Part shown: positions 24,059 through 45,075 of the stretch, one piece after another
How the letters are laid out: each line of letters opens with the position of its first letter
Position numbering within the stretch: the first letter of the stretch is position 1
DNA from: Candidatus Thorarchaeota archaeon
GTDB taxonomy: Archaea; Asgardarchaeota; Thorarchaeia; Thorarchaeales; Thorarchaeaceae
Assembly (NCBI GenBank): GCA_048884965.1
Contig: JBHLQH010000004.1
Location: forward strand, 64,001-128,000
DNA: 64,000 nt
Direction of reading: 5' to 3'
The notes under the pieces: generated by a model
What the model was told of the DNA's origin: nothing
Seen by the model: only the letters and a program-made list of their open reading frames with translations
Database searches by the model: none
Made by a program: the position numbers and the translations under genes

Positions 24059-24646
24059 TCACCCAATGAAGAGGTCACTTTGCTTGTCTTCATGGGCGTC
24101 TGACATCATCTTGAGAAGATCAGTGAATGTGTTCTCAATGTTGTAACCGGTCTTTGCAGAAGTCTCCTTGAAAACAGCAGGGACGCTTAGCTTCTCGATG
24201 AAATATTCAGTGAATTTCCGCCCCTCATCTGATGTAACGATCTGGGATTTAGGTCGACCCTCTCGAATGTCAGTCTTATTCCCCACAATCACTGTAGGAG
24301 GCAGAGGGCCCATATTCTTGTATGCTTCAACAAGCCATTTACTAGCATTGTCAAAGGACTCTCGGTCCACAGTTGAATAAACAAGGATTATGCCATTACA
24401 GCCGTGGTAGTAGTGTCCACGAACTTGTGCGAAGGATGGCTGACCTGCAAGATCCCAAATGATGAATTTAATTATCTCATTATCAAATAGAACGCGCTTC
24501 GTAGCTAGATCAACACCAATCGTAGCGATATGGCCTTCAATGAACTCATCCCCAAGATAGTTACGCCTGATTGATGTTTTGCCTACAGACCCATCACCGA
24601 TAAGGACAGCTTTCATTACTTTGCTACCGTCGTCCTGATCTCTCAT
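24059..24646 (-). CDS. Rab/Ras-superfamily small GTPase
   Basis: G1 GDGSVGKT, G2 ATIGVD, G3 WDLAGQ, G4 GNKTD and G5 ETSAK. Confidence 0.93.
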   Translation of the reverse strand: MRDQDDGSKVMKAVLIGDGSVGKTSIRRNYLGDEFIEGHIATIGVDLATKRVLFDNEIIKFIIWDLAGQPSFAQVRGHYYHGCNGIILVYSTVDRESFDNASKWLVEAYKNMGPLPPTVIVGNKTDIREGRPKSQIVTSDEGRKFTEYFIEKLSVPAVFKETSAKTGYNIENTFTDLLKMMSDAHEDKQSDLFIG

Positions 24647-24773: not shown

Positions 24774-26006
24774 TTAACTATTGAAGGATACAATGGCATC
24801 ATTCACCTTTTTTGCATGCTTTTTCGGGTGAATTGTACCACATCGAATAGCATGGCAATCATGAAAATGAGCGAATGACCACAACCCATCTCGCAAACGA
24901 AGAACTCCTTCCTCCGATAGGAGGTCTGGATGCTCGAGATAGAGTGAGATGAGCTCTAGTACACCATCCTTTCGGTGAACCTTAGCATCAACCCTTCCGC
25001 GAAATTCATTTTGATCAAGGACTGGCAGAACAAAGTATCCATGCTTCCGTTCTGGCTTGGGTACATAGCACTCTATCTTATAGTCAAAATCCCAGATACT
25101 CTTGGGATAATGACGCTCTCGGAGAATATTATCGAAGGGTGTTAGGATCTTAACAGGATGTTGCCCATCAGGCGAGTATTCATCCTCAAGCCGGCATAGA
25201 TGATCCTTGTGAATGAAATACCGATTCTTTTGTCCAAAGTCTACTTCTTCAATTACGTCTCCGAGCAGAGTATCGAGGTAAATCTCTATGGCACTCCGTT
25301 GATTCTTCCAAATCAGGTTTGCAGCCATTCCACCTGTGTAAAGCTTAATGTCCCTATAATCAGCGATTCCTAATGACTTGAGAATCGTTTCAACCAGAAA
25401 AAGAGGAATATCATCAAGAGCCATCGGTTCTGTATCGATTCCAGCTGGAACAACGCGTTCAGGGATATCATAGTACTTCTGGAATCCTTCTCTATGCGAA
25501 ACCATCAGTCTCCCAATGGTCATAAGATACTCTAAAGCTCGCTTCTCCTTCTTCCAATCCCACCAGCCATCACTTTGTGATGTACGCTCTCCGAGGTCTT
25601 TGCTCTTTGTAGCGCCATCTTTCTTTATTTTTCTGTAGACTTCCTCAACAACTTCCTTGTTATCTAAGCCCCATTTCACATACCATCCAGACTTTCGCTT
25701 ACTCATCATTTCCATTTTCCAAGCGTAATAAGGAAAAGACTCCATTGGCATCAGACACATGGAGTGGGACCAATACTCGAACAACTTGCCTTCTTTTTCT
25801 AGTTTCCACACATCTCCCTCTCGATAGTCAGGAAATCGATTATAGGTAATGAGATTATGACTGCGACTCACAACAGAGATTGTATCGATCTGAATATTGT
25901 GAATGCGCTTTGCAACATCAAGAACGGACTTGCTGGGAGCGTCTGTCCTCAATCCTTGTATGTCCAAAATCAGACTACGGACGTGTTCTGGAGATGCTTG
26001 AAGCAT
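24774..26006 (-). CDS. ycaQ: AlkZ/YcaQ (HTH_42) family crosslink-repair DNA glycosylase
   Basis: IQIDTISVVSRSH (QxD motif of the YcaQ type), LFEYWSH, WWDWK, LTPFDN and YKIECYVPKPERKHGYFVLPVL...GRVD. Start moved to the ATG at 26006. Confidence 0.88.
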   Translation of the reverse strand: MLQASPEHVRSLILDIQGLRTDAPSKSVLDVAKRIHNIQIDTISVVSRSHNLITYNRFPDYREGDVWKLEKEGKLFEYWSHSMCLMPMESFPYYAWKMEMMSKRKSGWYVKWGLDNKEVVEEVYRKIKKDGATKSKDLGERTSQSDGWWDWKKEKRALEYLMTIGRLMVSHREGFQKYYDIPERVVPAGIDTEPMALDDIPLFLVETILKSLGIADYRDIKLYTGGMAANLIWKNQRSAIEIYLDTLLGDVIEEVDFGQKNRYFIHKDHLCRLEDEYSPDGQHPVKILTPFDNILRERHYPKSIWDFDYKIECYVPKPERKHGYFVLPVLDQNEFRGRVDAKVHRKDGVLELISLYLEHPDLLSEEGVLRLRDGLWSFAHFHDCHAIRCGTIHPKKHAKKVNDAIVSFNS

Positions 26007-26062
26007 AAAGTTGAACGACTCAATGTCTCTTAAGTAGAGTTCTCTCAACGAAACTGAGTAGT

Positions 26063-27100
26063 CTAGAACCGCTTCTTCTTTGATTTGTAAGAAGCATAAC
26101 GAGTGCGAAGTTCTGAAGAGAACCATTCGCTTTGCTCATCAATTCTTGATAATGAGTATAACAAATCATATGAGATCCAACGACTCGCTTCTGGTCGAGT
26201 CTCGTACTCCCAAAGACCGTACTTGTTCTGTTGCTGTTGTATCCAAGAGACCAATTCATCTACTCGAGCATCAGATCGATTGGCACCAATACGCCCACAA
26301 AGGTCCAAGACTAATGCGGGATCAAAGTTCGCATGGTATGTGAGATTGCCACGATGTTGTTCGAACCCGATGATTCTAGCGGTATTGAAACCCAGAGTTC
26401 TTCGATCCCGAGTTTCTCTGGCAAGTAACAGATCTAATGCTCTCTTTGCCTCGGCACTTGTTCTTCTTTGAGGATGATAGGCTAAGCAAGTCAGAGCAAG
26501 TGTTGTATTGGTTCGGCAGCCCCATTGAGTATGAGGCATCTTTCTATACCCAGCTTGATACCCATAGACCTCGCCAATTTTGCCCGCAGGCCAAGATCCA
26601 TCATCAAGACGTTGATCCAAAAGCCATTCATACGCAATTTCAGCTCTCTCGTCAGTACTGTGACCACTCGCTGCAATCCCTAGAAGAGGGAGTGATGTTT
26701 GAAGTGGTACCATGGTGTACTGCCGCTTCGGTTCTGAGATTCCATCATATGCATGCGGGATAGGCCAAGTTCCGTTCCTCTGTTGCGCTCTGAAGATATA
26801 CTCTACACCGTTGAGAATTGTAGGATGTTCTTTTGGAAAGCCCAAATAGCCTAAGCGAAGCAGAGAAAGGGCAGTTGATCTCACTGGATTCTTCCTTTGA
26901 GCTTCAGCTCCATCCAAGTCACTCCATGAACCATCCTTGTTTTGCGACTTGATGATCGAGCTCGCTAGAGGATCATCCTCTCTCATCGCCTGAAGTTCCA
27001 GCACTTCCTCTTCGTCTTCGGAGAAGTTCAATAATCTCCGAAGTATAAGGTATCGAAGATTGGGTGAACGATCAGCAAGCAATAGAGGTATCCAAGTCAT
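26063..27100 (-). CDS. Prenyltransferase/squalene-cyclase-like (alpha/alpha barrel) repeat protein
   Basis: QW-type repeats SQNKDGSW, QQRNGTW, QRLDDGSW and QQNKYGLW; no obvious DxDD motif. Start overlaps the uvrA-like stop (ATGA). Confidence 0.7.
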   Translation of the reverse strand: MTWIPLLLADRSPNLRYLILRRLLNFSEDEEEVLELQAMREDDPLASSIIKSQNKDGSWSDLDGAEAQRKNPVRSTALSLLRLGYLGFPKEHPTILNGVEYIFRAQQRNGTWPIPHAYDGISEPKRQYTMVPLQTSLPLLGIAASGHSTDERAEIAYEWLLDQRLDDGSWPAGKIGEVYGYQAGYRKMPHTQWGCRTNTTLALTCLAYHPQRRTSAEAKRALDLLLARETRDRRTLGFNTARIIGFEQHRGNLTYHANFDPALVLDLCGRIGANRSDARVDELVSWIQQQQNKYGLWEYETRPEASRWISYDLLYSLSRIDEQSEWFSSELRTRYASYKSKKKRF

Positions 27101-30100
27101 TTCTTCACCTCCAGCAGATTTCTCAGATGGACAGCTGTTGGGGTATTACCATTAGAAACCTCCAATGGAGTACCCTGGGCAATGACATACCCTCCCTCAG
27201 GACCACCCTTCGGACCGAATTCGATGAGATGGTCACAAGCGGCCAGTAAATGTGGATGGTGCTCAATTACAACTACACCATTCCCATTATCGACCAGTCT
27301 ATTCAATACTTCAACCAAGCGTTCAACATCCTCCATATGTTGACCAACTGTGGGCTCGTCGAATATGAACAATGTGCCGGGACTTGATTTCTTTGATATT
27401 TCTTGAGCAATCTTGAGACGTTGTATCTCTCCCCCTGATAAGGTTCGGCTGGGTTGCCTGAGACCAAGGTAACCTAGTCCCACATCCAACGCCGCTCGTA
27501 ATTCATTCGATACACGAACATCATCCTTGAAAATCTCATAGACTTCTTCCAATGTCATCTCATTCAATTCCGGCAGTGAGATACCTTGGATCCGAACTTT
27601 CCAGGCTTCCTGTGAATAGCCAGTACCATTGCATATCTCACAATCAGTAAAGAGATCAGGAAGGAATCCCATCTCGATACGGATTCGACCATTTCCGTCA
27701 CATGCTGTGCAGGGCTTCGTTATCTGCTCGACATCATAGCCTAGTCCCATGGCATCCTCACTCTCTGAATATATCTTCGCTAAGGGTTTGAAAAGATCCA
27801 ACGCCTGACCGGGACTAGAGATTCCCTTTCTACCTTGATCCAGTATTATTGTTTTCTGAGGAGTGCCCTCGAGAGTATCATACTCACCCGGCTCCAGCGG
27901 TTCATAGGAAACACTTGTAGTGAATTTCTTTGGAGCAATTGCACGACCAATGGTATCAATCATGAAGGTGCTCTTTCCGGATCCAGACACCCCACAAATA
28001 CCAACGAGAACGTCTGTAGGTATCCTCACTGTCAAGTTTTTCAGATTGTTCTCTCTTGCACCACTGATGCTCATCCATGATCTTGAGATGCGGTAGTTCC
28101 TTCTGGTTGCGGGTCGCTTCTTGCCTGATAGCCAAAGTCCAGTAATTGTATCGCTCTTTCGAAGCTCAGCAAGATTTCCAGATACTAGTACCCTGCCGCC
28201 ATTTCGACCAGACCCAGGCCCGATATCAAGTAGGAAGTCAGCAGAATTGATGACATCGTGGTCGTGCTCTACAATGATAACTGAATTGCCTTCATTGGTA
28301 AGATCCTTGAGGACATCTATCAGTGCGTTCACTTCTGAAGGATGCATACCTCGAGTCGGCTCATCTAGAAGTATCGTGAGGGAAGTAAGACCACTGCCAA
28401 GTAATGACGATAGGACTAGGCGCTGAGCTTCACCAGCGGACAATGTAGAAGCAACTCGATTTATGTGAAGATATCCCAGACCGACCTTCTCTAGGAACTC
28501 CAATCTGGTCATAATCTTGCGAAGTGCAGAAACCGAAATCGGATTATCGTTGATTTCCGATGTGAGCGGAATAAGAAACTCTCGTAGGTGAGATAGTGTC
28601 ATGCTCTGCAATTCATGGATGTTATGCTTCAGAATCTTGACTTGCAGATATGTATCTCGCAATCCAGTACCTCTACAACTTTTGCACGGTTCAGTCCTTG
28701 TGTAGGTCCCTCCAAAATCCCAGTCGCTCACCCATTTGTAGAAACCAGCCCATTTTCCTTTCCCTGTTACTTCGACCTTCTTCCCTCTTCGATTTCCAAT
28801 ATAGGATATCTCCATGGGCTCTTGGTTCGGGTCCCCATACAAGAAGACATTCTTTGCTTCCGCAGACAAATCATCCCAAGGAGTCATCTTTGGATCAAAA
28901 TCATATCTTTGGCCTAGCGCCTTAAGTGCTCCTGCAGCCCAGCTTGTTGGAGTACAGAAGTATCCTTTGGGAAAGTATCCCGGAGAGTACATAGCACCAT
29001 CACAGATAGGCTTCTCTGGGTGTATGATGAGCTTCTCAGGCATAGGTACCTGTTGACTTCCTACGCCACTACAGGTTTCGCATGCTGAAGTATAGGTTCT
29101 AGAGTTGAAATCCCTTGGTTTGAAGAGAGATTGAGTGAATCCACATTTCTTGCAGACCCACTTATCCAAGCGTGAAAGTTTGGACCCACACGAGGGACAT
29201 GTTCTCGTACCTATCTGAGCGAAAAGGACGGTGAGATTCTCAGCTATCTCAGTCACCGTTCCTACCGTCGTTCGACGAGCATAGACGGACCAGTAACCAG
29301 CTCCTCGTCTTCTTCGGGAGCTGATCGACAGTGTTACTCCAAGACCTGACACACTCTCGACCGGTGCTTCAGGACCCTCACTTGTGGCATGTCGTTCGTA
29401 TACGGAGAGGGTCTCATAGAATCGTCGCTCAGCTTCCGCCTGAAGGACATCGCGGACAAGGGAACTCTTTCCTGAACCTGAGATACCAGTCACTACCGTC
29501 ATCTTCCCTTTTGGAATATCAACATCGACATCTCGAAGGTTGTTAGCAGAAGCCTTCCTAACCGAGATGCTTTCAGAAACATAATGACTCTCAAAGTCGG
29601 TCCCATCTTTTGGCTCAACTGTCTTTTCTTCTCTCAGCGCCTGGGCCGTCGGACTGTCCCTAGTATCCATAAGGTCATCAAATGGACCGGCATAGAGCAA
29701 CTGACCTCCCTTGGGACCTGCACCGGGTCCAAGGTCAACGACCCAATCAGCACTTTTGATCACATCGGTATTGTGTTCGACTACAACCAATGTAGCTCCA
29801 GCCTTGACCAATCGGTCTAGCACTTGCAAGAGCCCAGACAGATCAGCAGCATGCAAGCCAGTAGAAGGCTCATCAAGGATGATCATCTTGTCCTTCAGAG
29901 CACGCATGCCTAGATATTTCGCAAGTTTGACGCGTTGACTCTCTCCACCACTGAGAGTGGGAGAAGGTTGCCCTAGGGATAGATAACCAAGACCAATATC
30001 AACTAGTGCGTCAAGTACTCGAACCGCACTTGTCCGTTTGGCTACAGGAATTCGCGTTTCATCCTTCAATAGGTCCCTCACATCTCTAATAGAAAGTTCA

Positions 30101-31992
30101 TAAATCTCAGAAATCGACAAGCTTCGTTCACCAAACTTGACTCTAGATTCTAGAACCTCATCCTTGAATCGCTTACCATTGCATTCTGAACATGTAATCC
30201 AGACGGAGGGAAGATACCTCATCTTTACCTCGATGCCACCCATACCCTTGCATTCTGTACACCCTCCCTCAGGAGTATTGAATGAGAAGTGCGATTTTGA
30301 AAGATCGGTTTCCGCTGCAAAGATGTCCCGTATCATATCCGCTAGTTTTGTGTATGTCGCGGGATTGGATCGAGGGTTCTTGCCAATCGGTTTTTGGTCA
30401 ACAATGATTGGAGAAGGTGCGAGGCCCTCAACGCCAGCACATCCGATTGATTTGCCTTCATGAAGAGTTGGTACAAGTACATGATTGACCAAGGTGCTCT
30501 TTCCCGACCCAGAAACACCCGTAATGACAGTGAACCGGGACAAGGGAAACGTAACGTCGATTCCAAGGAGATTGAACTTTTTTGCTTCTTTGATCGTGAT
30601 GAAGTCCTTAGGAGGGTCTCTCGGTGTAGGACGGAAGACCTCTTGTCTTCCACTGAAGAACTGACCAGTCACAGTTCCTGATTCCCAGAGACCTTTTGGA
30701 GAACCAGAATAGACTATTTCGCCACCATTGATACCTGCACCAGGTCCAAGATCTACCGCGAGGTCTGCATGAGCGGCTGCAATTGAATCATGCTCAACAT
30801 AGATGACTGGACCTGGGAGGTTTCTAAAGGCGGGAAGAATTCTTTCAGTGTCCTTTGGATGTTGTCCAATTGTAGGCTCGTCAAGCAGATGCACGATATC
30901 CTCCAAACGACTAGTTAGTGAGATAGCTAGACGAACACGTTGACTTTCTCCACGGGATAGGCTTGGCGAAGGGCGATTTAGCTCTATGTACCCCAATCCC
31001 ACATCCTGAAGAGCAACTAGTCGCCTCTCTATTTCAGTCCGAAGACGAGCTGCGGTTCGAGGTAGGGCTAGTGACGTCAATAGAATCTTTAGGTCGTCAA
31101 CACTGAGTTCTAGGATGTCTGTGAATCTAAGTCCATCCAAGGTTACAGAGGCTGCTTGTGGATAGAGACCGGTCTGATTGCAATCATCACAACCAGTTCC
31201 ATTGCACGAATTACAGGACCTATTGAAATGCTTTGGTTCAAGATCTCCAAAGTAAGTTCCACATTCGGTGCACTGATTCGAGAGCGCGTATTCCATTCTG
31301 GCTTCCTTACCGCGAACAGAGATTGCCCCTGAGCCTAATGCTGCCGCTTTATTCACCGCAGCCCGTAGGTCCCCAATCTGGACCTTACTCGAGAATCTTG
31401 CTACAACCACCTCGATATCATACTCAGATGAGCTGTCAAGGTCCGAAATGACAGGAGATCCATTAACGAGAACATCGGACGCCTCGAATTCTTGCCTAAG
31501 GAGCGCAAGTAGCGTTCTGTGACTACCTTTGCTCCTACGAACAAGTATTGCACGAAGAGCAATTGCTTCCTTCTTCAGGCTTTTCTGCACTTGCTCAACA
31601 ATCTCATCTTCTGTTAATTTGGAAAACTGCGATCCGCAAACATGACAGTGCCGCACACCAAAACGAGCGAACAGGATCCGAAGAAAGGGATGCATCCCAG
31701 ATGCAGAGGCGAGGGTCGAGTTAGGGTTTCGATTAAGCAAGTTCTGCTCGACTGCAATGGTCGGACCAATACCGGTTATTGAGTCAACATCAGAAGAAGC
31801 AAGTCTAGATGTCGCTCGCCCCATATTGTAAACATCTAAGAATCGACGTCTTGCCTCATTATAAACAGTATCGAAGATCAATGAGGTCTTCCCAGATCCT
31901 GAAACCCCAGTCACAACAGTGAGACCATCTCCTAAGTCGATGGACAGGTTCTTTAGATTGTGCTCTCGTGCACCTCTGACTTTGATCTTCAT
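27097..31992 (-). CDS. Double-length (tandem-fused) UvrA-like ABC ATPase, 1631 aa
   Basis: Four GA-x2-[HFN]NL-type leaders with GxSGSGK Walker A, four LSxGExQR signatures, four DEP Walker B, four EH motifs, and CxxCxGxG zinc fingers. Confidence 0.9.
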   Translation of the reverse strand: MKIKVRGAREHNLKNLSIDLGDGLTVVTGVSGSGKTSLIFDTVYNEARRRFLDVYNMGRATSRLASSDVDSITGIGPTIAVEQNLLNRNPNSTLASASGMHPFLRILFARFGVRHCHVCGSQFSKLTEDEIVEQVQKSLKKEAIALRAILVRRSKGSHRTLLALLRQEFEASDVLVNGSPVISDLDSSSEYDIEVVVARFSSKVQIGDLRAAVNKAAALGSGAISVRGKEARMEYALSNQCTECGTYFGDLEPKHFNRSCNSCNGTGCDDCNQTGLYPQAASVTLDGLRFTDILELSVDDLKILLTSLALPRTAARLRTEIERRLVALQDVGLGYIELNRPSPSLSRGESQRVRLAISLTSRLEDIVHLLDEPTIGQHPKDTERILPAFRNLPGPVIYVEHDSIAAAHADLAVDLGPGAGINGGEIVYSGSPKGLWESGTVTGQFFSGRQEVFRPTPRDPPKDFITIKEAKKFNLLGIDVTFPLSRFTVITGVSGSGKSTLVNHVLVPTLHEGKSIGCAGVEGLAPSPIIVDQKPIGKNPRSNPATYTKLADMIRDIFAAETDLSKSHFSFNTPEGGCTECKGMGGIEVKMRYLPSVWITCSECNGKRFKDEVLESRVKFGERSLSISEIYELSIRDVRDLLKDETRIPVAKRTSAVRVLDALVDIGLGYLSLGQPSPTLSGGESQRVKLAKYLGMRALKDKMIILDEPSTGLHAADLSGLLQVLDRLVKAGATLVVVEHNTDVIKSADWVVDLGPGAGPKGGQLLYAGPFDDLMDTRDSPTAQALREEKTVEPKDGTDFESHYVSESISVRKASANNLRDVDVDIPKGKMTVVTGISGSGKSSLVRDVLQAEAERRFYETLSVYERHATSEGPEAPVESVSGLGVTLSISSRRRRGAGYWSVYARRTTVGTVTEIAENLTVLFAQIGTRTCPSCGSKLSRLDKWVCKKCGFTQSLFKPRDFNSRTYTSACETCSGVGSQQVPMPEKLIIHPEKPICDGAMYSPGYFPKGYFCTPTSWAAGALKALGQRYDFDPKMTPWDDLSAEAKNVFLYGDPNQEPMEISYIGNRRGKKVEVTGKGKWAGFYKWVSDWDFGGTYTRTEPCKSCRGTGLRDTYLQVKILKHNIHELQSMTLSHLREFLIPLTSEINDNPISVSALRKIMTRLEFLEKVGLGYLHINRVASTLSAGEAQRLVLSSLLGSGLTSLTILLDEPTRGMHPSEVNALIDVLKDLTNEGNSVIIVEHDHDVINSADFLLDIGPGSGRNGGRVLVSGNLAELRKSDTITGLWLSGKKRPATRRNYRISRSWMSISGARENNLKNLTVRIPTDVLVGICGVSGSGKSTFMIDTIGRAIAPKKFTTSVSYEPLEPGEYDTLEGTPQKTIILDQGRKGISSPGQALDLFKPLAKIYSESEDAMGLGYDVEQITKPCTACDGNGRIRIEMGFLPDLFTDCEICNGTGYSQEAWKVRIQGISLPELNEMTLEEVYEIFKDDVRVSNELRAALDVGLGYLGLRQPSRTLSGGEIQRLKIAQEISKKSSPGTLFIFDEPTVGQHMEDVERLVEVLNRLVDNGNGVVVIEHHPHLLAACDHLIEFGPKGGPEGGYVIAQGTPLEVSNGNTPTAVHLRNLLEVKK

Positions 31993-32593
31993 GGGACGGC
32001 AACTCGTTAAGGACTTTGAATGCAGTAAACCGAGATATGTCTATTTCACTCTCTATTGACGAGCTATCCTCTAAGTCTTCTCATAGTACTGTAGATTGAT
32101 TAAGAAGATAACTAAGTCACTACGTTGCCTATTTGAGCAAGATAACTTCCTTCTTTGGATTCGCAGAATCAAGTTAGGAATTGCTACGACTTTCAAAGAC
32201 GATGATGATATTGATACCAGTCATCTCTGACATCTTTTCTATCTCATCCACATTCCACATCATATTCAATGATGACGTGATAGAAGGGTGTTCTTACTAT
32301 TGACTTCTCTATTCGACAAATCCCCATCGAAATATTACTATTCAACGATAATAGAACTAAAGACATAAATACGTTAATTGTCGAATTAAATGAGAGAGCG
32401 ATGATTCCAGACCTGATTTCCCTATTGATCTGCATATTGATGATGCTAGCAGGCTTAGGTCTGATAGCGTTGACAGATAAAACGTTAGAGTATCTGATAT
32501 AGAGCGGAATGAATTTAGCCACCGTCCCTCATGTAATCCACAAACATTATTACAACTGATTCCATATTTGATAAAATTCACGAAGGGATTAGA

Positions 32594-33115
32594 TTGGTAG
32601 TCTTCGCAGTATACGATCCGATCAAACATGAACGAGATTTTATTCAACTCAATATCGAATACATAGGATGGATTGCAGACCAAGTACTCAAACGCTATGG
32701 AATTGATTTTCTGAAATCTACGGGAATGTCTGTAGAAAAGTACGTTCGGACAAATTACGAGAATTTCATATCTGTGCCAGTAGAAGAAGGGAGACTATTG
32801 ATTCTTGAAGATTCTGGAAAAGTAATAGGAATGGGTGCCCTTACCAAACATGATATGGACGAAGGCGAGATCAAACGAATGTATGTCAAACCTGAGTATA
32901 GGGGAAAGGGATTTGGAAAGAAGCTTTTGATGAAACTTATTGATATTGCTAAAGATCTTGAGTATACTGCTCTACGATTGAATACGGGGGGATTCATGGA
33001 TACTGCACAGTATGTTTACACTAGTGTCGGATTCAGGAAAATACCTGAATATACAGAGTCCGAAGTGCCAATTCCTTTGAACCATCAATGGTTTTTCATG
33101 GAGTTGGAATCGTAG
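32594..33115 (+). CDS. GNAT family acetyltransferase
   Basis: GEIKRMYVKPEYRGKGFG, LRLNT and YTSVGF; TTG start after GAAGGGA. Confidence 0.85.
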   Translation: MVVFAVYDPIKHERDFIQLNIEYIGWIADQVLKRYGIDFLKSTGMSVEKYVRTNYENFISVPVEEGRLLILEDSGKVIGMGALTKHDMDEGEIKRMYVKPEYRGKGFGKKLLMKLIDIAKDLEYTALRLNTGGFMDTAQYVYTSVGFRKIPEYTESEVPIPLNHQWFFMELES

Positions 33116-33124
33116 GAACAGAGT

Positions 33125-33916
33125 TCATGTTCGTATGACTATTATTTGCCCCTGTCTACTTACACCAAGTTGCAGGTTTCCTTTGTAGGCGTTGACATAC
33201 GCATTCTCAAGTATGATGTCTTCACCCTCATTAACCTGTCTGATAGTATCATTCCACAGAACCAGTTTCACTGATCCTGTTTCATCAGTGAATGTCACAT
33301 TTGCAACTTGGAGCGGTTTGCCGTCTTTTGAAATTACGTCTCTTGTTTCAGATACTTCTTCAATTCTACCTTTGATTTTTAGTCCTTTCATCCCATCTTG
33401 AAGGTCTTTTATCAAAACATATGATGGCTCATAGGAGTCATCGGTTATCTTCACGTAATATCGCAAATCGAAAACCGGGACCCATCGTAGAATGCCTTCC
33501 TGTCTGAATCCTATCTTCTCATAGAATCCCTTTGTTCTAACATTCCATTCAGGTGTATCAAGAGTCCACTTCTTTACCTTAGGGTAGTTGCTCTCTATTA
33601 GTCGAAATGTTCCTGTCCCAATTCCTTTACGATGAAATTCAGGATCAATGAATACACCATAGATGTATGCATGCTCTTCTGATACCTTGTAGACTCGTGT
33701 GCCTCCAACGATCTGCCCATTGAAAAGAAATTTCCAATAATCTGTTCTCTCGCTTTTGGTATCTCGTCTATGTGCTTCAACTGAGTCATAGCCATCTGGA
33801 CCTCCGGGACCAGGTGCTCCGACATCCACATCAGAATCAAAAGCTCGTTTCGAGATATTAGCAAGAATCTCAGCATCTTGCGGTTTTGCAAGTTCTATCG
33901 AAATCAGTCCTGTCAA
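33125..33916 (-). CDS. GNAT acetyltransferase fused to an SSB/RPA-type OB fold
   Basis: The first ~160 aa contain FIDPEFHRKGIG and FYEKIGF. The last ~97 aa (IKDLQDGMKGLKIKGRI...DETGSVKLVLWND...GEDIILENAYVNAYKGNLQL) follow the archaeal SSB OB-fold pattern. Confidence 0.85.
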   Translation of the reverse strand: MTGLISIELAKPQDAEILANISKRAFDSDVDVGAPGPGGPDGYDSVEAHRRDTKSERTDYWKFLFNGQIVGGTRVYKVSEEHAYIYGVFIDPEFHRKGIGTGTFRLIESNYPKVKKWTLDTPEWNVRTKGFYEKIGFRQEGILRWVPVFDLRYYVKITDDSYEPSYVLIKDLQDGMKGLKIKGRIEEVSETRDVISKDGKPLQVANVTFTDETGSVKLVLWNDTIRQVNEGEDIILENAYVNAYKGNLQLGVSRQGQIIVIRT

Positions 33917-33919
33917 TCC

Positions 33920-36808
33920 TTACCCCTCCTGAATGACATCACTTAGGAACCTGCCAGTGAATGATTTGTTGTCTTTGGCTACATCTTCTGGCGTTCCAGT
34001 TGCTATTACCTCTCCACCCTCATCGCCACCTGATGGTCCCAAATCTATGACATAATCCGCACTCTTTATGACGTCCATATGATGCTCAATGACTAGTATT
34101 GTATTCCCTTGTTCTACAAGTCGATTCAAGCAATCTAAGAGCTTTTGAATATCAGCGAGATGGAGACCTGTTGTTGGTTCGTCGAAAATGTATAATGTAT
34201 CACTCGATGCCTTCAATTTTCCAAGCTCTTTTGAAAGTTTGATACGTTGAGATTCGCCTCCACTCAACTGATTCGATGGCTGCCCAAGCTTGAGATATCC
34301 AAGACCTAACTCATCCATGGTCTTAAGCTTGTGATGAATCAGATTTACATCTTCAAAGAAGGTCATTGCCTCTTCTACAGTCATGTCGAGGACCTGTGCA
34401 ATGTTCTTTCCTTTGTACTGAATCTCAAGGATTTCTTTTGTATATCGATCACCTTTGCATGCGGGACAGATGCTCTCGATATCAGGCATAAATTGCAATT
34501 GAGTAGTGACTATTCCCTCACCTTTGCATTCAGGACATCTACCACCACTATTCTGATTGAAGCTGAAATCAGCCATCTCGTAGTGATTATCTTTTGCCTC
34601 AGGGAGGTCAGCAAATAGTGAACGTATCTTATCAAAGAAACCAACGTAGGTTGCCGGATTTGACCTAGAAGATCGCCCTATGTTCGTCTGATCGATATTC
34701 CTCACATCTCGAAGATTCTCAATTCCTTCAATTCTATCATGTTTACCCGGGATGATTCGCCTATCTCTGAAGACAGAGTGCAGTTTCTTGTAGAGAATCT
34801 CATTGATCAAGCTACTCTTTCCAGATCCAGATACACCAGTAATGCACACGAAGAGACCGAGAGGAATCTCTACGTCGACACCTTTCAGGTTGTTCTCTTG
34901 TGCGTTGAAAATCCTTAATGCATGCCCATTGGACTGTCGACGGTGCTCTGGTGTCTCAATCCTTTTCATTCCTCTAAGATACTGCCCAGTAACAGAGTCC
35001 TCATTTTTCTGAATATCTGCAATAAGCCCTTGAGCGATAACTCTCCCTCCATGAACTCCTGGACCGGGACCCATCTCAATTATGTAATCTGCGGCCTTCA
35101 TCGTTTCAACGTCATGCTCGACAACTATTACCGTGTTACCGACGTCACGTAACTTTTTGAGAGTATCAATTACTTTAGTTCCGTCTCGAGGATGAAGTCC
35201 GATTGAAGGTTCATCAAGAACAACAAGCATTCCCATAAGCTCCGATCCAATCTGGGTGCTTAGTCTAGTTCTCTGCAGCTCACCACCAGAGATAGTGTCA
35301 GCCCGACGATTCAGACTAAGGTAGTAGAGACCAATGTCTAGCATCAGGTCAATCCGTTTTTTCAATTCATCAAGAATAGGACCTGCGATATGCTCCTTCT
35401 CTGCAGGAGTCTGAATATTATCAAGGAATGACCGTAGTTCCTGCAAGGGCAGGATAGATAATTCATGGATAGTCCTGTCGCCAACCTTCACAAGCATCCG
35501 TTGAGGAAGAAGCTTTGTACCTTTGCAATCAGGACACAGACTCTCGACCATGCGTTTCTCAACCCAATTGTACCCAGGGTCATTCTGCTTGCGTTCCTTA
35601 CACAAACGACGATACCATGCATCCAATCGGGGCACAATCCCTCTGAAAGAGAACATCTTCCCAAAGTTTTCGTGGTCCCTAAGCTCATCAGGAGGACGTA
35701 GCATCTCAAACTTCTCACCACCTGTTCCATAGAACAGTTTGTGCTTTACATCCTCAGATAGTTCCTTGTAAGGTGTATCTAATGAGAAGCCAAAGTGCTC
35801 CCCCATGCTATAGGCCATACAATAATGCCAGTTAATGATGCGTTTGTAAGTGCTGGGATCTATATTCCATGAACCTCTATCAATAGCTCCTTCTCGTAGA
35901 CTCTTATCGGGATTTGCCACCATAAGGATAGGATTTGCTGTCATATGAGTGCCTAACCCCCCACAAGTTCTGCAAGAACTATCACCTTCATTCGAGGAGA
36001 AGTACCATGGGAGAAATTCGCCAGCTAGAATATGATGTTCAGAGCATGACAAAGATGAGTAGAATTCCGAGGATTTCGGAGCATTCTCCGGATTTGTTAT
36101 ATTCAGTCTGAGAAATCCTTCTCCAATCCTCAGACACTCGATGATAGAATTCACGATTTGCTTTGTCTGATCTCCATTTATTGTGAACTTGTCCAAGATT
36201 CCTTCAATACGATACTCCTCTTCCTCGTCAAGCTCTATATTATCAGAGGTGCTTCTTAGTTCACCGTCGAGCCTGATATTTCTGCAACCATGATTTCGTA
36301 TCTCATCGATGAGATACTCATAGTTCTCACCATATACCTTGAAGAACGGAGCTAGAATCTCGATGGTAGTTCCTTGTGGCAATGATTGAATATGTTCAGC
36401 GATTTGATGTGGAGTCTTCGCGGGAATCTGACTTTTACAATATGGACAATGAGGTATACCTACTGTTGAGAATAGCAAGCGTAAGTATGTCTGTATCTCT
36501 GTTAGGGTTCCCACGGTGGATCTTGGATTTCTCACCCCACGAGCTTGAGAGATCGAAAGAACAGGAGAGAGACCTTTTACCGAGTCCACTGCTGGTTTCT
36601 TGATCAATGGTATGCGAGACCTTGCGTAGGCAGAGAGCGACTCCATGAACCTGCGTTGACCTTCTCCATACAGAACATCGAACGCAAGTGATGATTTTCC
36701 ACTCCCTGACACACCTGTAACCACGGTTAGTTTGTCACGAGGAATCTCGACATCTATATTCTGCAGATTATTTTCGCGAGCTCCTTTGATACGCACAGTT
36801 TTGCTCAT
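33920..36808 (-). CDS. uvrA: UvrA-family ABC ATPase (single, full-length)
   Basis: [63 protein letters not shown], a second ABC module with LSGGESQR, and zinc fingers. Confidence 0.9.
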
Positions 36809-37749
36809 AGCATCTCACTCTCCATGCATAGGTATCCTGCCTCATAAACCTCGAATCGACTCCTACTTGTAAGCTTCAACGGATACACCATCTTTTGGAG
36901 TAGTCCCAACCTTGCAAGAAACTCGCAGGATGAAATCAGTGTGAAGGTATCATTGCGATTAAGCTTCTTTCTAAAATGCTTGTCAATCTGCGATATGCCA
37001 CAATGACCACCTTGTTCAAGGATATAAGCAGCAATAGGCTCGAAGAGAATGTCAGCGTATTTCTCTAAATAACTCTGGCAGAGATTATAGCCTGTTTCGC
37101 AAGCTTCCAGGGTCACACCTTCTTCAAGCAGAGAGAAATAGCTCTTCCCGAAAAGATCAGGATTGTATTTCCTTGCTTGTAGAGTGACCTCTCGAGATGG
37201 AACATCACCATGTGACAGAACTTCCAGATGAGCTACTTGAAGTATCAATCCGTTAAGCCATCTGAATGCCAACATGGCATCTTTCTGATGTACGATACTC
37301 TTGCGAACTTTACTCAAGTAACCAAGCGCGTTGTCAGCATAAATCATCATCCCAAGTGATTTGTCTCTGTCACCAATCCGAGAGGGATTCTCATAATATT
37401 CTGTTATCGTATCATCATTAGAGAATAGCAATTTACCAGTATATATGATATGATGGAGAACAGAGCCTTGTAAAGGAACATCCATCCAATCTCGAAAATT
37501 CTTCCTTGAATGGACATCAATTTGAATCAGGATATCACCATCCTTCAGCCAATGTTGCTGATATGGAAGAGATTCATCCTTAGTTATGATTAGCATGTCA
37601 ATATCGGATTCAGACCACACATCCCCACGCACCAGACTCCCATAGACAATTGCCGCAAGGATATTGGAATCTCTTTGTAGTTGTTCAACAAAGGAATCAA
37701 GGGCTGAGGTATACTCAGCAATTATATCGTTTTGTCTGTCCACACTCAT
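36805..37749 (-). CDS. Pol-beta-superfamily nucleotidyltransferase domain protein with C-terminal helical/wHTH region
   Basis: [23 protein letters not shown] (hGS-x9-10-DxD) plus a third Asp strand (IQIDVH). Stop overlaps the uvrA start (ATGA). Confidence 0.8.
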
Positions 37750-37753
37750 TAAA

Positions 37754-38635
37754 TCACTTCTCCTTTATAGGGTGATATAAATCGAGCATGAAATCACCAT
37801 CACTTCCGTCCGGTGATAGTGCATGTTCAAGGCAAGGTCCTTTAGCCATCATGTATTTGCTTGATCTAACCCATTCATCCAGCTTCTTCCAGCTTTCAAG
37901 ATACCCATTTTCCTTGAAGAATTCAGATTCAAGCTCCTCTGTCAAGTTACACGTAATGACAGCAAAGTTCCCACCCTTGAACTCTTTATACTCCATACCC
38001 TCCAAGAGCTCATATTCTCTGTCAACTACCATCCAGAACTCGTATCCATACTCCGAACTACCAGGTTCAGGATTCGGATTGTTGAAACCATAGACAGGGT
38101 GTTTCCGAGGTTTGTTAAGCAAACCCAGAGGTTCAGCCCACTCACGCATCTTCTGCCATGCATCGTTCTCTGGGGAACGACTTATTACTCGAACACTTAC
38201 AACTCGATGAGGATTGAGCTTCACTATGCGAACATCTGATTCTTCGATATCATCTGTTTTCTTTGAATGAGCCTTCAGTATTAGCTCTGCGCGTTTCGCG
38301 GATTCCGCATTCCTACGCCTCACGGATTTTGCATAGGTCTCAACGATTGCAGATATGAAGAGAACTCCATCATCGGTTATTTCATACAGACCGCGTTTCG
38401 GATTAGAAATCATCTCAGCTGATAATAGCTTTGAAAGGTGATGAGCAAGGGCTGTTTTGCTTAAACGAACAACATGAAGAAGATCATCAAATTCCTTGGG
38501 ACCTTGAAGAAGTGAGGAAAGCATCTCGAGCCGGGACCGATTGGAGATAGAGGAGAGGAGATATTCTATATCATTAGTGAAATCATCAAGTATTGATGAC
38601 CATTGATGTCTTTTCACCTTGCTCATCTTAACCAC
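37754..38635 (-). CDS. ArsR-type HTH regulator fused to a GyrI-like small-molecule-binding domain
   Basis: SNRSRLEMLSSL...LSKTALAHHLSKL...YEITDDG (wHTH); VRIVKL..RVVS...SPENDAW...YGFNNP...YGYEFW...GGNFAV...CLEH...DLYHPI (GyrI-like). Confidence 0.85.
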   Translation of the reverse strand: MVKMSKVKRHQWSSILDDFTNDIEYLLSSISNRSRLEMLSSLLQGPKEFDDLLHVVRLSKTALAHHLSKLLSAEMISNPKRGLYEITDDGVLFISAIVETYAKSVRRRNAESAKRAELILKAHSKKTDDIEESDVRIVKLNPHRVVSVRVISRSPENDAWQKMREWAEPLGLLNKPRKHPVYGFNNPNPEPGSSEYGYEFWMVVDREYELLEGMEYKEFKGGNFAVITCNLTEELESEFFKENGYLESWKKLDEWVRSSKYMMAKGPCLEHALSPDGSDGDFMLDLYHPIKEK

Positions 38636-38646
38636 GATACAGAGAT

Positions 38647-38701
38647 TAAGTACATTTATTATTAAACATTTCTTTGAACGTAAGTACTATTTTTACTGAA
38701 C
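38647..38701. promoter_or_regulatory. Imperfect 21-bp direct repeat upstream of the ArsR-GyrI operon (candidate operator)
   Basis: TAAGTACATTTATTATTAAAC (38647-38667) and TAAGTACTATTTTTACTGAAC (38681-38701), 16/21 identical. Confidence 0.4.
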
Positions 38702-38764
38702 AATTTCATCTTCATCGAATGCCTGAGAGTTTCTCGAAAACTGTACACTTATCCGATGGAAACT

Positions 38765-39358
38765 CTAGATGTCAAATTCTAGCTTGTTTTCTTCCCACCA
38801 TTGCCGCCATTCTTTCATAATCCGTTCTCGTCCGGACAGTGTAATGCCATCGACAAAAGAAGGCCCAGGATTCCCAAGCAGGCGTCGTAGCATCACAATT
38901 TGCCCCATGTGACCCATATAATGATAGGCCATCCTGTACAGGGTTTCTAACAATGATTCACTAGGATTACCTGCAAAAGCTTGGTAGAATTCGGAGGGCT
39001 CTAATCCACGAAGATACTCCTTGTTACAATCACTCATATTGAGATAAGTATCAAGTAAATTACGGAATGATAAAGGAGGATGGATGCGTGAAATCTCATC
39101 CTTGGTTGTTCCATAGCGAAAGTATTCACACAACTCTTCAGAATAGAACCGGGTATTTTGACATGTCAAGTTCACAACCCAATGGTAATGAACAGCGCAA
39201 TGACCAAAAATCCATCCTATAGAATTCAGCATTGGTGAAGCTGATGCATATATTTGATCTGATGAAAGACCCATCAAAGAGTGAAGTAGGTTGCATTCTG
39301 CAATCTCAACTGAAGCTATGCCTATTTGTGCGACATTGAGTTCCATGTAAACACCCAC
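38765..39358 (-). CDS. DinB/YfiT superfamily protein
   Basis: NSIGWIFGHCA and YHYMGHMGQI His motifs (metal triad of the DinB four-helix bundle). Confidence 0.85.
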   Translation of the reverse strand: MGVYMELNVAQIGIASVEIAECNLLHSLMGLSSDQIYASASPMLNSIGWIFGHCAVHYHWVVNLTCQNTRFYSEELCEYFRYGTTKDEISRIHPPLSFRNLLDTYLNMSDCNKEYLRGLEPSEFYQAFAGNPSESLLETLYRMAYHYMGHMGQIVMLRRLLGNPGPSFVDGITLSGRERIMKEWRQWWEENKLEFDI

Positions 39359-43723: not shown

Positions 43724-44161
43724 ATGATGTCGAATATTGAAGAGATCGTGGAACTGTTTACGAAAATTCTAGAGTCAGTCACCTTTGCCATTGAAGAGCT
43801 GGAATTCAATCAGCATCAGGTAGGGAGAGGTATTTTCATCATCGATTATATTGGGAATAATGAACCGTGTAATCTGAAGGATATCTATGAGAATACAAAA
43901 TTCCCTCCAAGCACAGCGTCTCGAAGGGTAGACGAGCTCGTGAAAGCTGGATTCATTGAAAGAGCAAGATCAGAAGAAGATAGACGAGAAATCATTCTTC
44001 AATTGACTGAGGATGGTCTTACAGTCTTCAGGATCTTCAGAGATCATCGAATCAAATCGCTCAAGCAATTTCTCAAGTCATTTGATTCGAACGAGGTTGA
44101 AAACTTCACGCGGATTCTTCGACACCTTGTAGATAATCATGAAGATATCTTTGTCATCTAA
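43724..44161 (+). CDS. MarR family transcriptional regulator
   Basis: PPSTASRRVDELVKAGFIERARSEEDRREIILQLTEDG. Confidence 0.9.
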   Translation: MMSNIEEIVELFTKILESVTFAIEELEFNQHQVGRGIFIIDYIGNNEPCNLKDIYENTKFPPSTASRRVDELVKAGFIERARSEEDRREIILQLTEDGLTVFRIFRDHRIKSLKQFLKSFDSNEVENFTRILRHLVDNHEDIFVI

Positions 44162-44235
44162 TGGTTGTAGTCCTGTCAACAAAACTAAGTAGAACATAAT
44201 GCATACCATACTCACGTGTATTGGGAGGTTATCCA

Positions 44236-45075
44236 TTGAGCATAGAATTACCTGAGATAGAAATTCTATCCAAACAGATGAATGAGATAATGACTTCAAA
44301 GAGCATATCTGATGTGCGTGTGGAGAATTACGAAAAGCTCCAGAATTCAAGCTTCTTCAATAAGGATACCACTACGTACAGTAATCTTGTTGGTTGTAAA
44401 ATTAGGGAAGTTACAGGAAGAGGAACCGTCATCAGAATCAGAATGGACAAAGAAAGGAATCTCTTGTTAGCTCCAGAAATGGGCGGAGAGCTTAGATTGT
44501 TCTCAAACGAAGCTGATATGCCTAAGAAATATCATCTTCGAGTGGACTTCACAGATGGCAGTATCTTCTCGATCTATCTGAAAGGGTATGGATTAGTTTA
44601 TGCCTCAAATGATTCGAATCTCTCCAATGTCTACTCGTATAACAGAGATTTCCTTAATGGAGTTTCACCATTAGAAGAGGATTACACACTTGATTATGTA
44701 AAGAGAGCCCTTGAAGAGAAAGATAGGAATCTGAAGACCCTACTCGTAGGGAAAGAAGCCATTGTTGTAGGATATGGTAATGCAGGATTCCAAGAGATCG
44801 CATTTGATTCTGGAATTCATCCCAAAAGAAAGAGTTCGACACTATCCATTACAGAAAAGAAGGCTCTGTTCAAGGCTATTAGAAGAGTCACAGATATGAG
44901 AATCAAGCAGGGAGGAAAGGACTCATTCACCGATCTATTCGGGAACAAAGGAAATCATGTTCCACTGATTGGAGGACATCTGAGAGATATGGCATGTCCA
45001 AAGTGCGGTACGATCATCGAGAGGTTGATGTTCGGTGGTGGACCTACCTATCTTTGTCCATCTTGTCAAATCTAA
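44236..45075 (+). CDS. Fpg/Nei (MutM-like) DNA glycosylase homologue with atypical active site
   Basis: SIELPE N-terminus, H2TH GYGNAGFQEIAFDSGIHP and CPKC...CPSCQ zinc finger; TTG start at 44236 after GGAGGT. Confidence 0.85.
   Translation: MSIELPEIEILSKQMNEIMTSKSISDVRVENYEKLQNSSFFNKDTTTYSNLVGCKIREVTGRGTVIRIRMDKERNLLLAPEMGGELRLFSNEADMPKKYHLRVDFTDGSIFSIYLKGYGLVYASNDSNLSNVYSYNRDFLNGVSPLEEDYTLDYVKRALEEKDRNLKTLLVGKEAIVVGYGNAGFQEIAFDSGIHPKRKSSTLSITEKKALFKAIRRVTDMRIKQGGKDSFTDLFGNKGNHVPLIGGHLRDMACPKCGTIIERLMFGGGPTYLCPSCQI

Follow-up and report, generated by a model that had tools for sequence, protein, structure and literature searches.

What does a UvrA protein do when the genes beside it encode neither UvrB nor UvrC, and what are two such proteins doing almost next to each other in one archaeal genome? 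The question is raised by nine adjacent genes at positions 24774–39358 of a 64-kb stretch of Candidatus Thorarchaeota DNA, hereafter the window (positions 64,001–128,000 of contig JBHLQH010000004.1, which is contig C4 of assembly GCA_048884965.1; the assembly holds 4.09 Mb in 99 contigs and is 95.7% complete with 7.2% contamination). An earlier interpretation made from the letters alone, here called the sequence-only reading, had proposed that the nine genes form one island for defence against DNA-targeting compounds. We consider it rather probable that the region instead holds two independent, conserved accessory modules, each built on a UvrA paralogue, which lie side by side in this lineage together with a YcaQ-type DNA glycosylase and some loosely associated genes. 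In the first module a UvrA is paired with a nucleotidyltransferase (NTase), and in the second a fused double UvrA is paired with an alpha/alpha-toroid protein. To our knowledge, the UvrA outputs described so far are the hand-off to UvrB in excision repair and the partnerless drug displacement carried out by class II proteins (DrrC, Ecm16).

Two UvrA genes outside the canonical repair set

The two UvrA genes belong to separate transcription units. In unit 1, all on the minus strand, a regulator combining an ArsR-type winged helix–turn–helix with a GyrI-like/Cass2 domain (ArsR-GyrI, 37754–38635), the NTase (36805–37749), a UvrA of 962 aa (33920–36808) and a GNAT acetyltransferase fused to an Ssb-like OB fold (GNAT-OB, 33125–33916; PF00583 and PF21473) are spaced by 4 bp, a 4-bp overlap and 3 bp, with a DinB-like gene (38765–39358, minus strand) 129 bp upstream of the regulator. 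In unit 2, likewise on the minus strand, a 1631-aa double UvrA that has four ABC nucleotide-binding sites (27097–31992; assigned from Pfam and NCBIfam) overlaps by 4 bp the gene for a 345-aa toroid protein (26063–27100), which is followed by an AlkZ/YcaQ-like glycosylase (24774–26006). The gap to this last gene is 56 bp if it starts from the ATG at 26006, giving a protein of 410 aa, while its longest open reading frame reaches 26126. A stand-alone GNAT acetyltransferase gene (32594–33115, plus strand; PF00583, 62 bits) sits convergently between the two units. This is the layout that had been given previously, and the nine open reading frames, their strands, their spacing and their families all held when the reading frames were listed and compared with Pfam.

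As had also been stated, neither uvrB nor uvrC occurs within the 64-kb window, and the sole matches to them in the genome are found on contig C14. There, uvrB (C14:36669–38654) is followed by tandem uvrA and uvrA′ genes of 969 and 949 aa with 4-bp overlaps (the three genes span C14:36669–44406), and uvrC lies ∼5 kb beyond them (C14:49691–51502). The genome encodes five UvrA-like proteins, with two in the window, two on C14 and one on contig C3. Both C14 proteins are class I UvrAs, 49% identical to each other, and both keep the residues corresponding to R216 and E222 of Escherichia coli UvrA. Since the canonical uvrB–uvrA–uvrA′ genes and uvrC reside on C14, the UvrAs of the window are extra paralogues. 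The view that they are accessory proteins rather than the housekeeping sensor of nucleotide excision repair (NER) is thereby borne out, and the single UvrA of the window is not the only possible partner of a distant uvrBC.

The nucleotidyltransferase-linked UvrA

The 962-aa UvrA is encoded directly after the NTase, whose stop codon overlaps the uvrA start, and this pairing is strictly kept. The NTase family comprises ∼442 representative clusters at 50% identity. UvrA was next door in all of the first three NTase contexts read (at 46%, 66% and 33% identity), while of two further distant contexts one has an overlapping UvrA (35% identity) and the other a double NTase with UvrA 1.6 kb away (34%). 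In three loci of bacterial type (L012, L096 and the P0134 locus), too, the NTase is adjacent or close to a UvrA. Among 301 genomes of the phylum, 34 from four families carry the NTase, and UvrA directly adjoins it in 30/30 Asgard loci examined, in one of two layouts: a single NTase gene precedes uvrA, frequently with ArsR-GyrI ahead of it, or a double NTase comes after uvrA. Both layouts are present in this genome, where the pair occurs a second time at C3:7–4569 as a 943-aa UvrA directly followed by a tandem double NTase, a gene that runs into the contig end. The first unit of this double NTase reads S-N-I-N, with both Asp residues lost, and the second reads S-D-I-D. The pair has also decayed in two genomes of the same genus (L136 in G164:C228 and L138 in G227:C241), where NTase and UvrA are deleted and ArsR-GyrI, an NTase stub of ∼50–60 residues, GNAT-OB and the convergent GNAT remain; L136 additionally retains the last ∼64 residues of UvrA. 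Because the operon decayed in these two genomes, the NTase–UvrA pair is dispensable.

The window NTase is a KNTase/YgxA-like protein of the Pol-beta type (PF18765, 47.5 bits) in which the GS...DxD motif is intact, with G37, S38, D49 and D51 conserved. Its predicted structure (pLDDT 93) consists of an NTase core, a helical domain and a winged-helix-like C-terminal domain. The best fold match found with Foldseek is the uncharacterised YgxA-like structure 3C18 (E 5.6e-14, TM 0.68/0.73), and the next is the kanamycin nucleotidyltransferase ANT(4′) (E 2e-9, TM 0.55/0.67). With both structures the window protein shares the NTase and helical domains and the GS...DxD motif at an identity of only 16–18%, and it differs from both by its winged-helix-like C-terminal domain and its pairing with UvrA. 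The likeness of the predicted model to ANT(4′) is in accordance with the previous assignment of this protein to a drug-modifying type of NTase.

The single UvrA itself has the full class I architecture, with two ABC modules and their two Walker A motifs, UvrB-binding and insertion domains, and a C-terminal zinc finger (UvrA_inter, PF17760, 66.9 bits; UvrA_DNA-bind, PF17755, 55.6 bits). It scored 1118.6 bits against TIGR00630 (cut-off 729.8, passed) and 1138.1 bits against NF001503, just under the cut-off of 1147. In phmmer comparisons it aligned end to end with class I UvrAs of known structure (PDB 9gxk, 2r6f, 3zqj and 3pih) at 969 bits, compared with 556 bits for Deinococcus UvrA2 and 461 bits for Ecm16. 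We built a maximum likelihood tree of 23 rows with SH-aLRT support, including six NTase-linked UvrAs from archaea and bacteria; class II was represented by proxies, namely plasmid-borne UvrAs of ∼820–880 aa without a UvrB-binding region, and DrrC itself was not included. The six NTase-linked UvrAs form one clade with 100% support, which joins the E. coli, Bernardetia and two C14 UvrAs at 97%; the class II proxies group apart, in a clade of their own. The sequence-only reading had compared this protein with DrrC and Ecm16 and had proposed such a tree; the placement beside class I speaks against the comparison.

Class IIa includes the self-resistance proteins DrrC and Ecm16, extra UvrAs that work on drugs bound to DNA and need neither UvrB nor UvrC; in class II UvrAs, both the UvrB-binding domain and the first zinc finger are missing (PMC9328131). 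The single UvrA of the window retains the UvrB-binding domain and its scores with the class II structures 7sh1 and 2vf7 are far below those with class I, so that together with its position in the tree a DrrC/Ecm16-type identity was ruled out. Moreover, no biosynthetic gene cluster lies near the window genes, unlike the setting of class IIa self-resistance genes. DrrC, Ecm16 and UvrA2 nevertheless offer a plausible functional analogy for the window UvrAs.

What sets the single UvrA apart from class I are its neighbours and a small number of positions. It does not lie beside uvrB, as another UvrA of the genome does, and it belongs to the separate clade that adjoins NTases. An R216A E222A mutant of E. 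coli UvrA has been described as disrupting the interaction surface for UvrB (PMC3025350). At the R216 column all six NTase-linked UvrAs have Q or D, with Gln in the window protein, which also has Ile at the E222 column; the uvrB-linked pair on C14 keeps R and E. In addition, at the zinc module of E. coli C253/C256, the first CxxC is replaced by C-x-E-H in the NTase-linked clade. The states at R216 and at this zinc module are both derived and common to the clade.

The genes around the pair differ in how closely they follow it. ArsR-GyrI carries matches to HTH_5 (PF01022, 29.8 bits), GyrI-like (PF06445, 58 bits) and Cass2 (PF14526, 56 bits) in one protein and heads the NTase–UvrA pair in at least eight other Asgard loci (L008, L010, L104–106, L108, L110 and L111), and from its domains and position it is likely the regulator of unit 1. 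Upstream of it, at 38636–38764 on the minus strand, two GTACTTA-containing repeats, separated by ∼34 bp, lie on either side of an A/T-rich, TATA-like stretch TTTAATAATAAA, and this arrangement may be the operator and promoter of unit 1. GNAT-OB, 3 bp downstream of uvrA, has the same position elsewhere only in L008 and L135, and the stand-alone GNAT is a syntenic neighbour in L008, L133, L136 and L138. The GNAT-OB family as a whole, however, is widespread (85/301 phylum genomes), and 26 of 30 loci examined, with flanks of ∼1.5 kb, have no UvrA, NTase or ArsR-GyrI neighbour, so that GNAT-OB was rejected as a general member of the first module and does not hold the place in a conserved island that it had been given. 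The same applies to the DinB-like gene, which had been counted with unit 1: no homologue was seen beside other NTase–UvrA operons, where most loci reach ∼1.5 kb to each side. The sequence-only reading had pointed to the DinB-fold protein ClbS; in the comparison with Pfam, the window protein matches the DinB_2/MST thiol-transferase families (PF12867, 32.9 bits; PF04978, 26.8 bits, just below the 27-bit cut-off). In L023 and L027, homologues with 43–45% identity are encoded upstream of the double UvrA.

The double UvrA and its predicted toroid partner

The double UvrA of unit 2 joins two halves that have diverged and have each lost a different domain, and in this it differs from class I UvrAs. 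An alignment to four single UvrAs shows that a UvrB-binding-like domain is retained in the N half, where the insertion domain has been lost, while the C half shows the reverse and, like class II UvrAs, is without the UvrB-binding domain. Across 20 orthologues, no variation is seen in any of the four Walker A and signature motifs or in the six zinc modules, and the two halves fall into two separate long-stem clades of the UvrA tree. No N half of a double UvrA has Arg at the R216 column. The chlamydial-type long UvrA (NF001885, a model of 1809 residues) is also of double length, but the window protein lies outside that family, with 874 bits against a cut-off of 3054. We know of no toroid partner of the chlamydial-type protein. 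The GC fraction is 0.46–0.48 in the stretch 26001–32000, over the double UvrA, compared with ∼0.42 across most of the window, which fits either a horizontal origin or a bias from protein composition.

The toroid gene is found beside a double UvrA in other genomes too. Contexts read in an Anaerolineae bacterium, a Lokiarchaeon and a Thorarchaeon each show a double UvrA of 1624–1632 aa with a 4-bp overlap. When a genome collection was scanned for the toroid, 80 loci were obtained, belonging to Thor-, Hermod-, Prometh-, Heimdall- and Hodarchaeota, Bathyarchaeia, Chloroflexota, KSB1, Aminicenantes, Spirochaetales and one bin labelled Patescibacteria. The double UvrA lies upstream of the toroid in 74 of them, mostly directly adjacent, and the exceptions are mostly contig ends. 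Within the phylum, 73/301 genomes carry the toroid, and it was found in none of the five other genomes of the same genus that were searched. This patchy spread, like that of the NTase (34/301) and the loss of the NTase–UvrA pair from two genomes of the same genus, speaks for accessory modules. The family counts 1445 homologues (90%-identity clusters), nearly all ∼345 aa, with more than 50% identity among the best 120.

The toroid is modelled (pLDDT 86) as an (alpha/alpha)6 barrel of a generic kind. The sequence has a Pfam match to SQHop_cyclase-like repeats (PF13243, 38.8 bits), and the fold is shared with squalene-hopene cyclase and thioester-domain barrels (Z 14–14.6 over 247–257 residues, rmsd 4.2–5.1); the best match is the thioester domain of complement C5 (Z 14.6, 248 residues, rmsd 4.2), and squalene cyclase reaches Z 14.3. 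Foldseek TM values against the PDB were 0.3–0.47, and a wide VIA-align search likewise gave only generic (alpha/alpha)6 matches. Class II terpene cyclases have a DxDD motif and a two-domain beta-gamma architecture, whereas the toroid is a single barrel of 345 aa in which DxDD is absent from both the sequence and the family consensus, and its scores against NCBIfam cyclase models were 21–25 compared with cut-offs of 323–851. A terpene cyclase identity was therefore ruled out.

A possible contact between the double UvrA and the toroid was modelled, using double-UvrA residues 1–470 and the toroid with row-matched alignments. The predicted complex scored 0.77 and the best control 0.40; the score mark applied is attained in 58 of 80 solved complexes and in 2 of 110 mismatched pairs. 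The runs agreed in at least 78% of contacts, with a partner pLDDT of at least 79. On the double-UvrA side the predicted interface comprises residues 150–168, 187, 193, 218–221 and 238–249 of the UvrB-binding-like domain, with G156, L161, L164 and L165 invariant, and on the toroid side it comprises residues 4–39 and 292–306, with L6–L8, S12, R16, L20, E32 and L36 invariant. Because fold searches link nothing of the toroid to UvrB, the score is unlikely to reflect memory of the solved UvrA–UvrB complex. The model supports binding of the toroid to the UvrB-binding-like domain of the double UvrA.

The third gene of unit 2 encodes an AlkZ/YcaQ-like protein of the HTH_42 DNA glycosylase family (PF06224, 158 bits with a cut-off of 25.9) that aligns to PDB 9zd6 at 3e-33. 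In this family the catalytic motif is (H/Q)-Phi-(D/Q), of which Q-Phi-D is the YcaQ-like variant, with broad specificity and without a tie to biosynthetic clusters, and only 12 archaeal HTH_42 proteins had been counted (PMC9040887). The window protein has Q39-I40-D41 at the motif position, and QID is kept in 10/10 AlkZ homologues near double-UvrA loci. The sequence-only reading of this gene as AlkZ/YcaQ is thus correct in fold and motif, though the motif of producer-type AlkZ is not present and the gene appears YcaQ-like. It shares PF06224 and this YcaQ-like motif with E. coli YcaQ and Streptomyces AlkZ, and it differs from them in being archaeal and in being linked to a double UvrA and toroid rather than to a biosynthetic cluster.

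This link recurs elsewhere. We clustered all flanking open reading frames of the 80 toroid loci and obtained neighbourhoods that are lineage-specific. Five Thorarchaeota loci carry the double UvrA, the toroid, a DinB-like gene, one variable gene, AlkZ within ∼4 kb of the core, and an AlkD-type DNA_alkylation gene, with a Ras GTPase nearby, while five Chloroflexota loci carry AlkZ, a methyltransferase, a metallophosphoesterase in four of the five, the double UvrA and the toroid. The suggested tie between AlkZ and the double UvrA–toroid core is therefore upheld in two distant lineages with differing gene orders. About ten Lokiarchaeial loci (L050, L056, L057, L060, L063, L068, L079, L082, L083 and L094) have BtrH_N/DUF4872, DUF3795, a methyltransferase and an extra UvrA of ∼834 aa without the UvrB-binding domain, followed by the double UvrA, the toroid and usually a glyoxalase/bleomycin-resistance gene. 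AlkD-type DNA_alkylation, DinB-like and glyoxalase/bleomycin-resistance genes are the other recurrent neighbours of the second module, and the repair and detoxification theme that had been read from the window is thus also seen around this module in other genomes. An Fpg-like gene immediately precedes the double UvrA in locus L015/L021 of Thorarchaeota, where it neighbours a DNA ligase gene; XPB-type helicases are encoded further downstream.

What the two modules may do

Both modules probably handle bulky adducts or DNA-bound xenobiotics. We are led to this reading because the genome has a separate canonical NER set, because the regulator is of a drug-sensor type and the NTase has an antibiotic-NTase-like fold, and because the neighbours are genes of repair and detoxification. 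In the first module (37754–38635, 36805–37749 and 33920–36808, here with 33125–33916), a repressor or activator of the GyrI type would sense a small molecule and control the operon, a UvrA that appears to derive from class I without the Arg that contacts UvrB would scan DNA for a bound compound or a bulky adduct, and the NTase, with its catalytic motif intact, would act on what UvrA finds, most likely on a hydroxyl of the compound and less likely on a DNA end or a protein. In the second module (27097–31992 and 26063–27100, here with 24774–26006), a single-chain UvrA pseudo-dimer with one UvrB-binding-like and one insertion domain would recruit the toroid through the UvrB-binding-like domain, at the place where UvrB docks, and the YcaQ-type glycosylase would take part in this process by acting on guanines that are alkylated or crosslinked. 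The genes present and their domains, the separate uvrABC set, the conservation of both gene pairs, the clades of the UvrAs and the states of the motifs are observed here; we infer the specificity for DNA adducts or xenobiotics, the independence from UvrB and every enzymatic step of this scheme, and the sequence-only proposal of a chain that senses, inactivates, strips and repairs would have the same standing. In its most specific form, the double UvrA and toroid would be a surveillance machine independent of UvrBC, in which the toroid would carry out the catalysis, removing or opening a bulky adduct alongside the YcaQ-type glycosylase, and the NTase-linked UvrA would couple scanning to nucleotidylation of a DNA-bound compound. 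We put this version forward only tentatively and regard it as doubtful.

Several observations weigh against this interpretation. The UvrB-binding domain of the single UvrA is complete and the protein passes the equivalog cut-off of TIGR00630, so the protein may still work with UvrB, and UvrB is found in 232/301 phylum genomes, including most carriers of either module. Fold searches gave the toroid no close match to any enzyme family, and for that reason no chemistry can be assigned to it. The control that scored 0.40 paired the toroid with an unrelated protein, and the modelled part of the double UvrA comprises residues 1–470 only. The links of GNAT-OB and DinB are lineage-specific. Finally, the two modules lie side by side only in the window and in L133, a close relative with ∼79–85% protein identity, and joint action of all nine genes is therefore unsupported.

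The last point bears directly on whether there is one island or two modules. In L133 the order is ArsR-GyrI, NTase, UvrA, the convergent GNAT, three other genes and the double UvrA, with GNAT-OB absent, and the locus of another close relative of the toroid has neither unit 1 nor AlkZ nearby. In phylum genomes that carry both modules, they are nearly always on different contigs or far apart, and in G087 they are ∼11 kb apart. Of the gene order that had been predicted to be conserved, the ArsR-GyrI/NTase/UvrA and double UvrA/toroid cores stand and the nine-gene island as a unit does not. In the cluster, two independent modules and loosely attached genes stand side by side, an arrangement specific to this lineage. 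One could go further and attribute the whole cluster to chance, with a common theme that exists only in the family names, as the nine-gene arrangement is not conserved and GNAT-OB, GNAT and DinB belong to common families mostly found elsewhere. We find this quite improbable: the cores are among the strictest gene pairs seen here (30/30 and 74/80), AlkZ accompanies the second module in two distant lineages, the juxtaposition does recur in L133, and the toroid is commoner in NTase carriers than in non-carriers (17/34 versus 56/267, a comparison that is descriptive only, as the genomes are related).

A different possibility is that the extra UvrAs are sub-functionalised parts of ordinary UvrABC repair that still pass lesions on to the one UvrB and UvrC and widen the range of lesions, with the NTase and toroid in auxiliary or regulatory roles. 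The class I architecture of the single UvrA, its scores against TIGR00630 and NF001503, its grouping beside class I at 97% support, the presence of UvrB in most module carriers and the UvrB-binding-like domain kept by the double UvrA would all be expected in that case. Against these stand the R216 column, where Arg is lost in 6/6 NTase-linked UvrAs and in all N halves of double UvrAs while the uvrB-linked C14 proteins keep it, and the predicted complex, which puts the toroid on the UvrB-binding-like domain; in addition, two genomes with both modules (G140 and G218, each 93% complete) have no UvrB_inter match, a weak point as both are incomplete metagenome-assembled genomes. On these grounds we judge a role within UvrABC repair to be unlikely. 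Less likely still is that the modules serve in defence against phages or mobile elements, where a UvrA-like ATPase would detect DNA that is foreign or modified and the effector would be the NTase or the toroid. In PADLOC, the UvrA-like proteins match mad3 (281–377 bits), mad8, AriA and generic ABC defence ATPases, and the NTase weakly matches PDC-S09 and PDC-M05A, with NCBIfam HalB as a further weak match (Foldseek TM 0.30–0.47); the patchy distribution across archaea and bacteria also looks like that of horizontally transferred genes. However, the PADLOC matches span only generic ABC and NTase cores, no full component set of any described system was found there, with AlkZ, the toroid, GNAT-OB and DinB unmatched, and no other system component is present. 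The recurrent annotated neighbours are repair and detoxification genes (AlkZ, AlkD, DinB-like, glyoxalase, Fpg and PolX), among the recurrent annotated clusters there is no restriction, CRISPR or abortive-infection gene, with an IS-type TnpB and an M78/DUF4411 pair near L010, and the regulator of unit 1 bears a drug-binding GyrI-like domain.

We therefore return to two accessory modules that probably handle adducts or DNA-bound compounds. A literature search found no paper on the NTase–UvrA pair or on the double UvrA–toroid pair. To the known outputs of UvrA, the present data add two further conserved partnerships found in archaea and bacteria, one with a nucleotidyltransferase and one with a toroid that is predicted to sit on the domain where UvrB docks. 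The window adds the co-location of both modules in an Asgard genome that also has a second NTase–UvrA pair and tandem canonical UvrAs, the recurrent link to a YcaQ-type glycosylase and the predicted docking of the toroid on a UvrB-binding-type domain, an interface that is a directly testable hypothesis. If the reading is true, the modules would be new branches of prokaryotic handling of DNA damage and genotoxins, would give functions to two sizeable families (∼1,400 toroid homologues in 90%-identity clusters and ∼440 NTase representative clusters), and would be cases in archaea of an inducible protection from DNA-targeting compounds that is under GyrI control. If independence from UvrBC also held, they would amount to two undescribed output branches of UvrA sensors common to Asgard archaea and bacteria.

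The surroundings of the cluster are mixed. On one side lie a Ras-family GTPase (24059–24646), a PadR regulator and a copper-type P-type ATPase, and on the other an S8 peptidase, a MarR regulator and an Fpg/Nei glycosylase. The Ras-family GTPase has more than 30 tblastn matches across the contigs of its own genome, as expected for an Asgard archaeon. The MarR-family regulator and the Fpg/Nei-type glycosylase are encoded at 43724–45075, 4–5 kb from the cluster.

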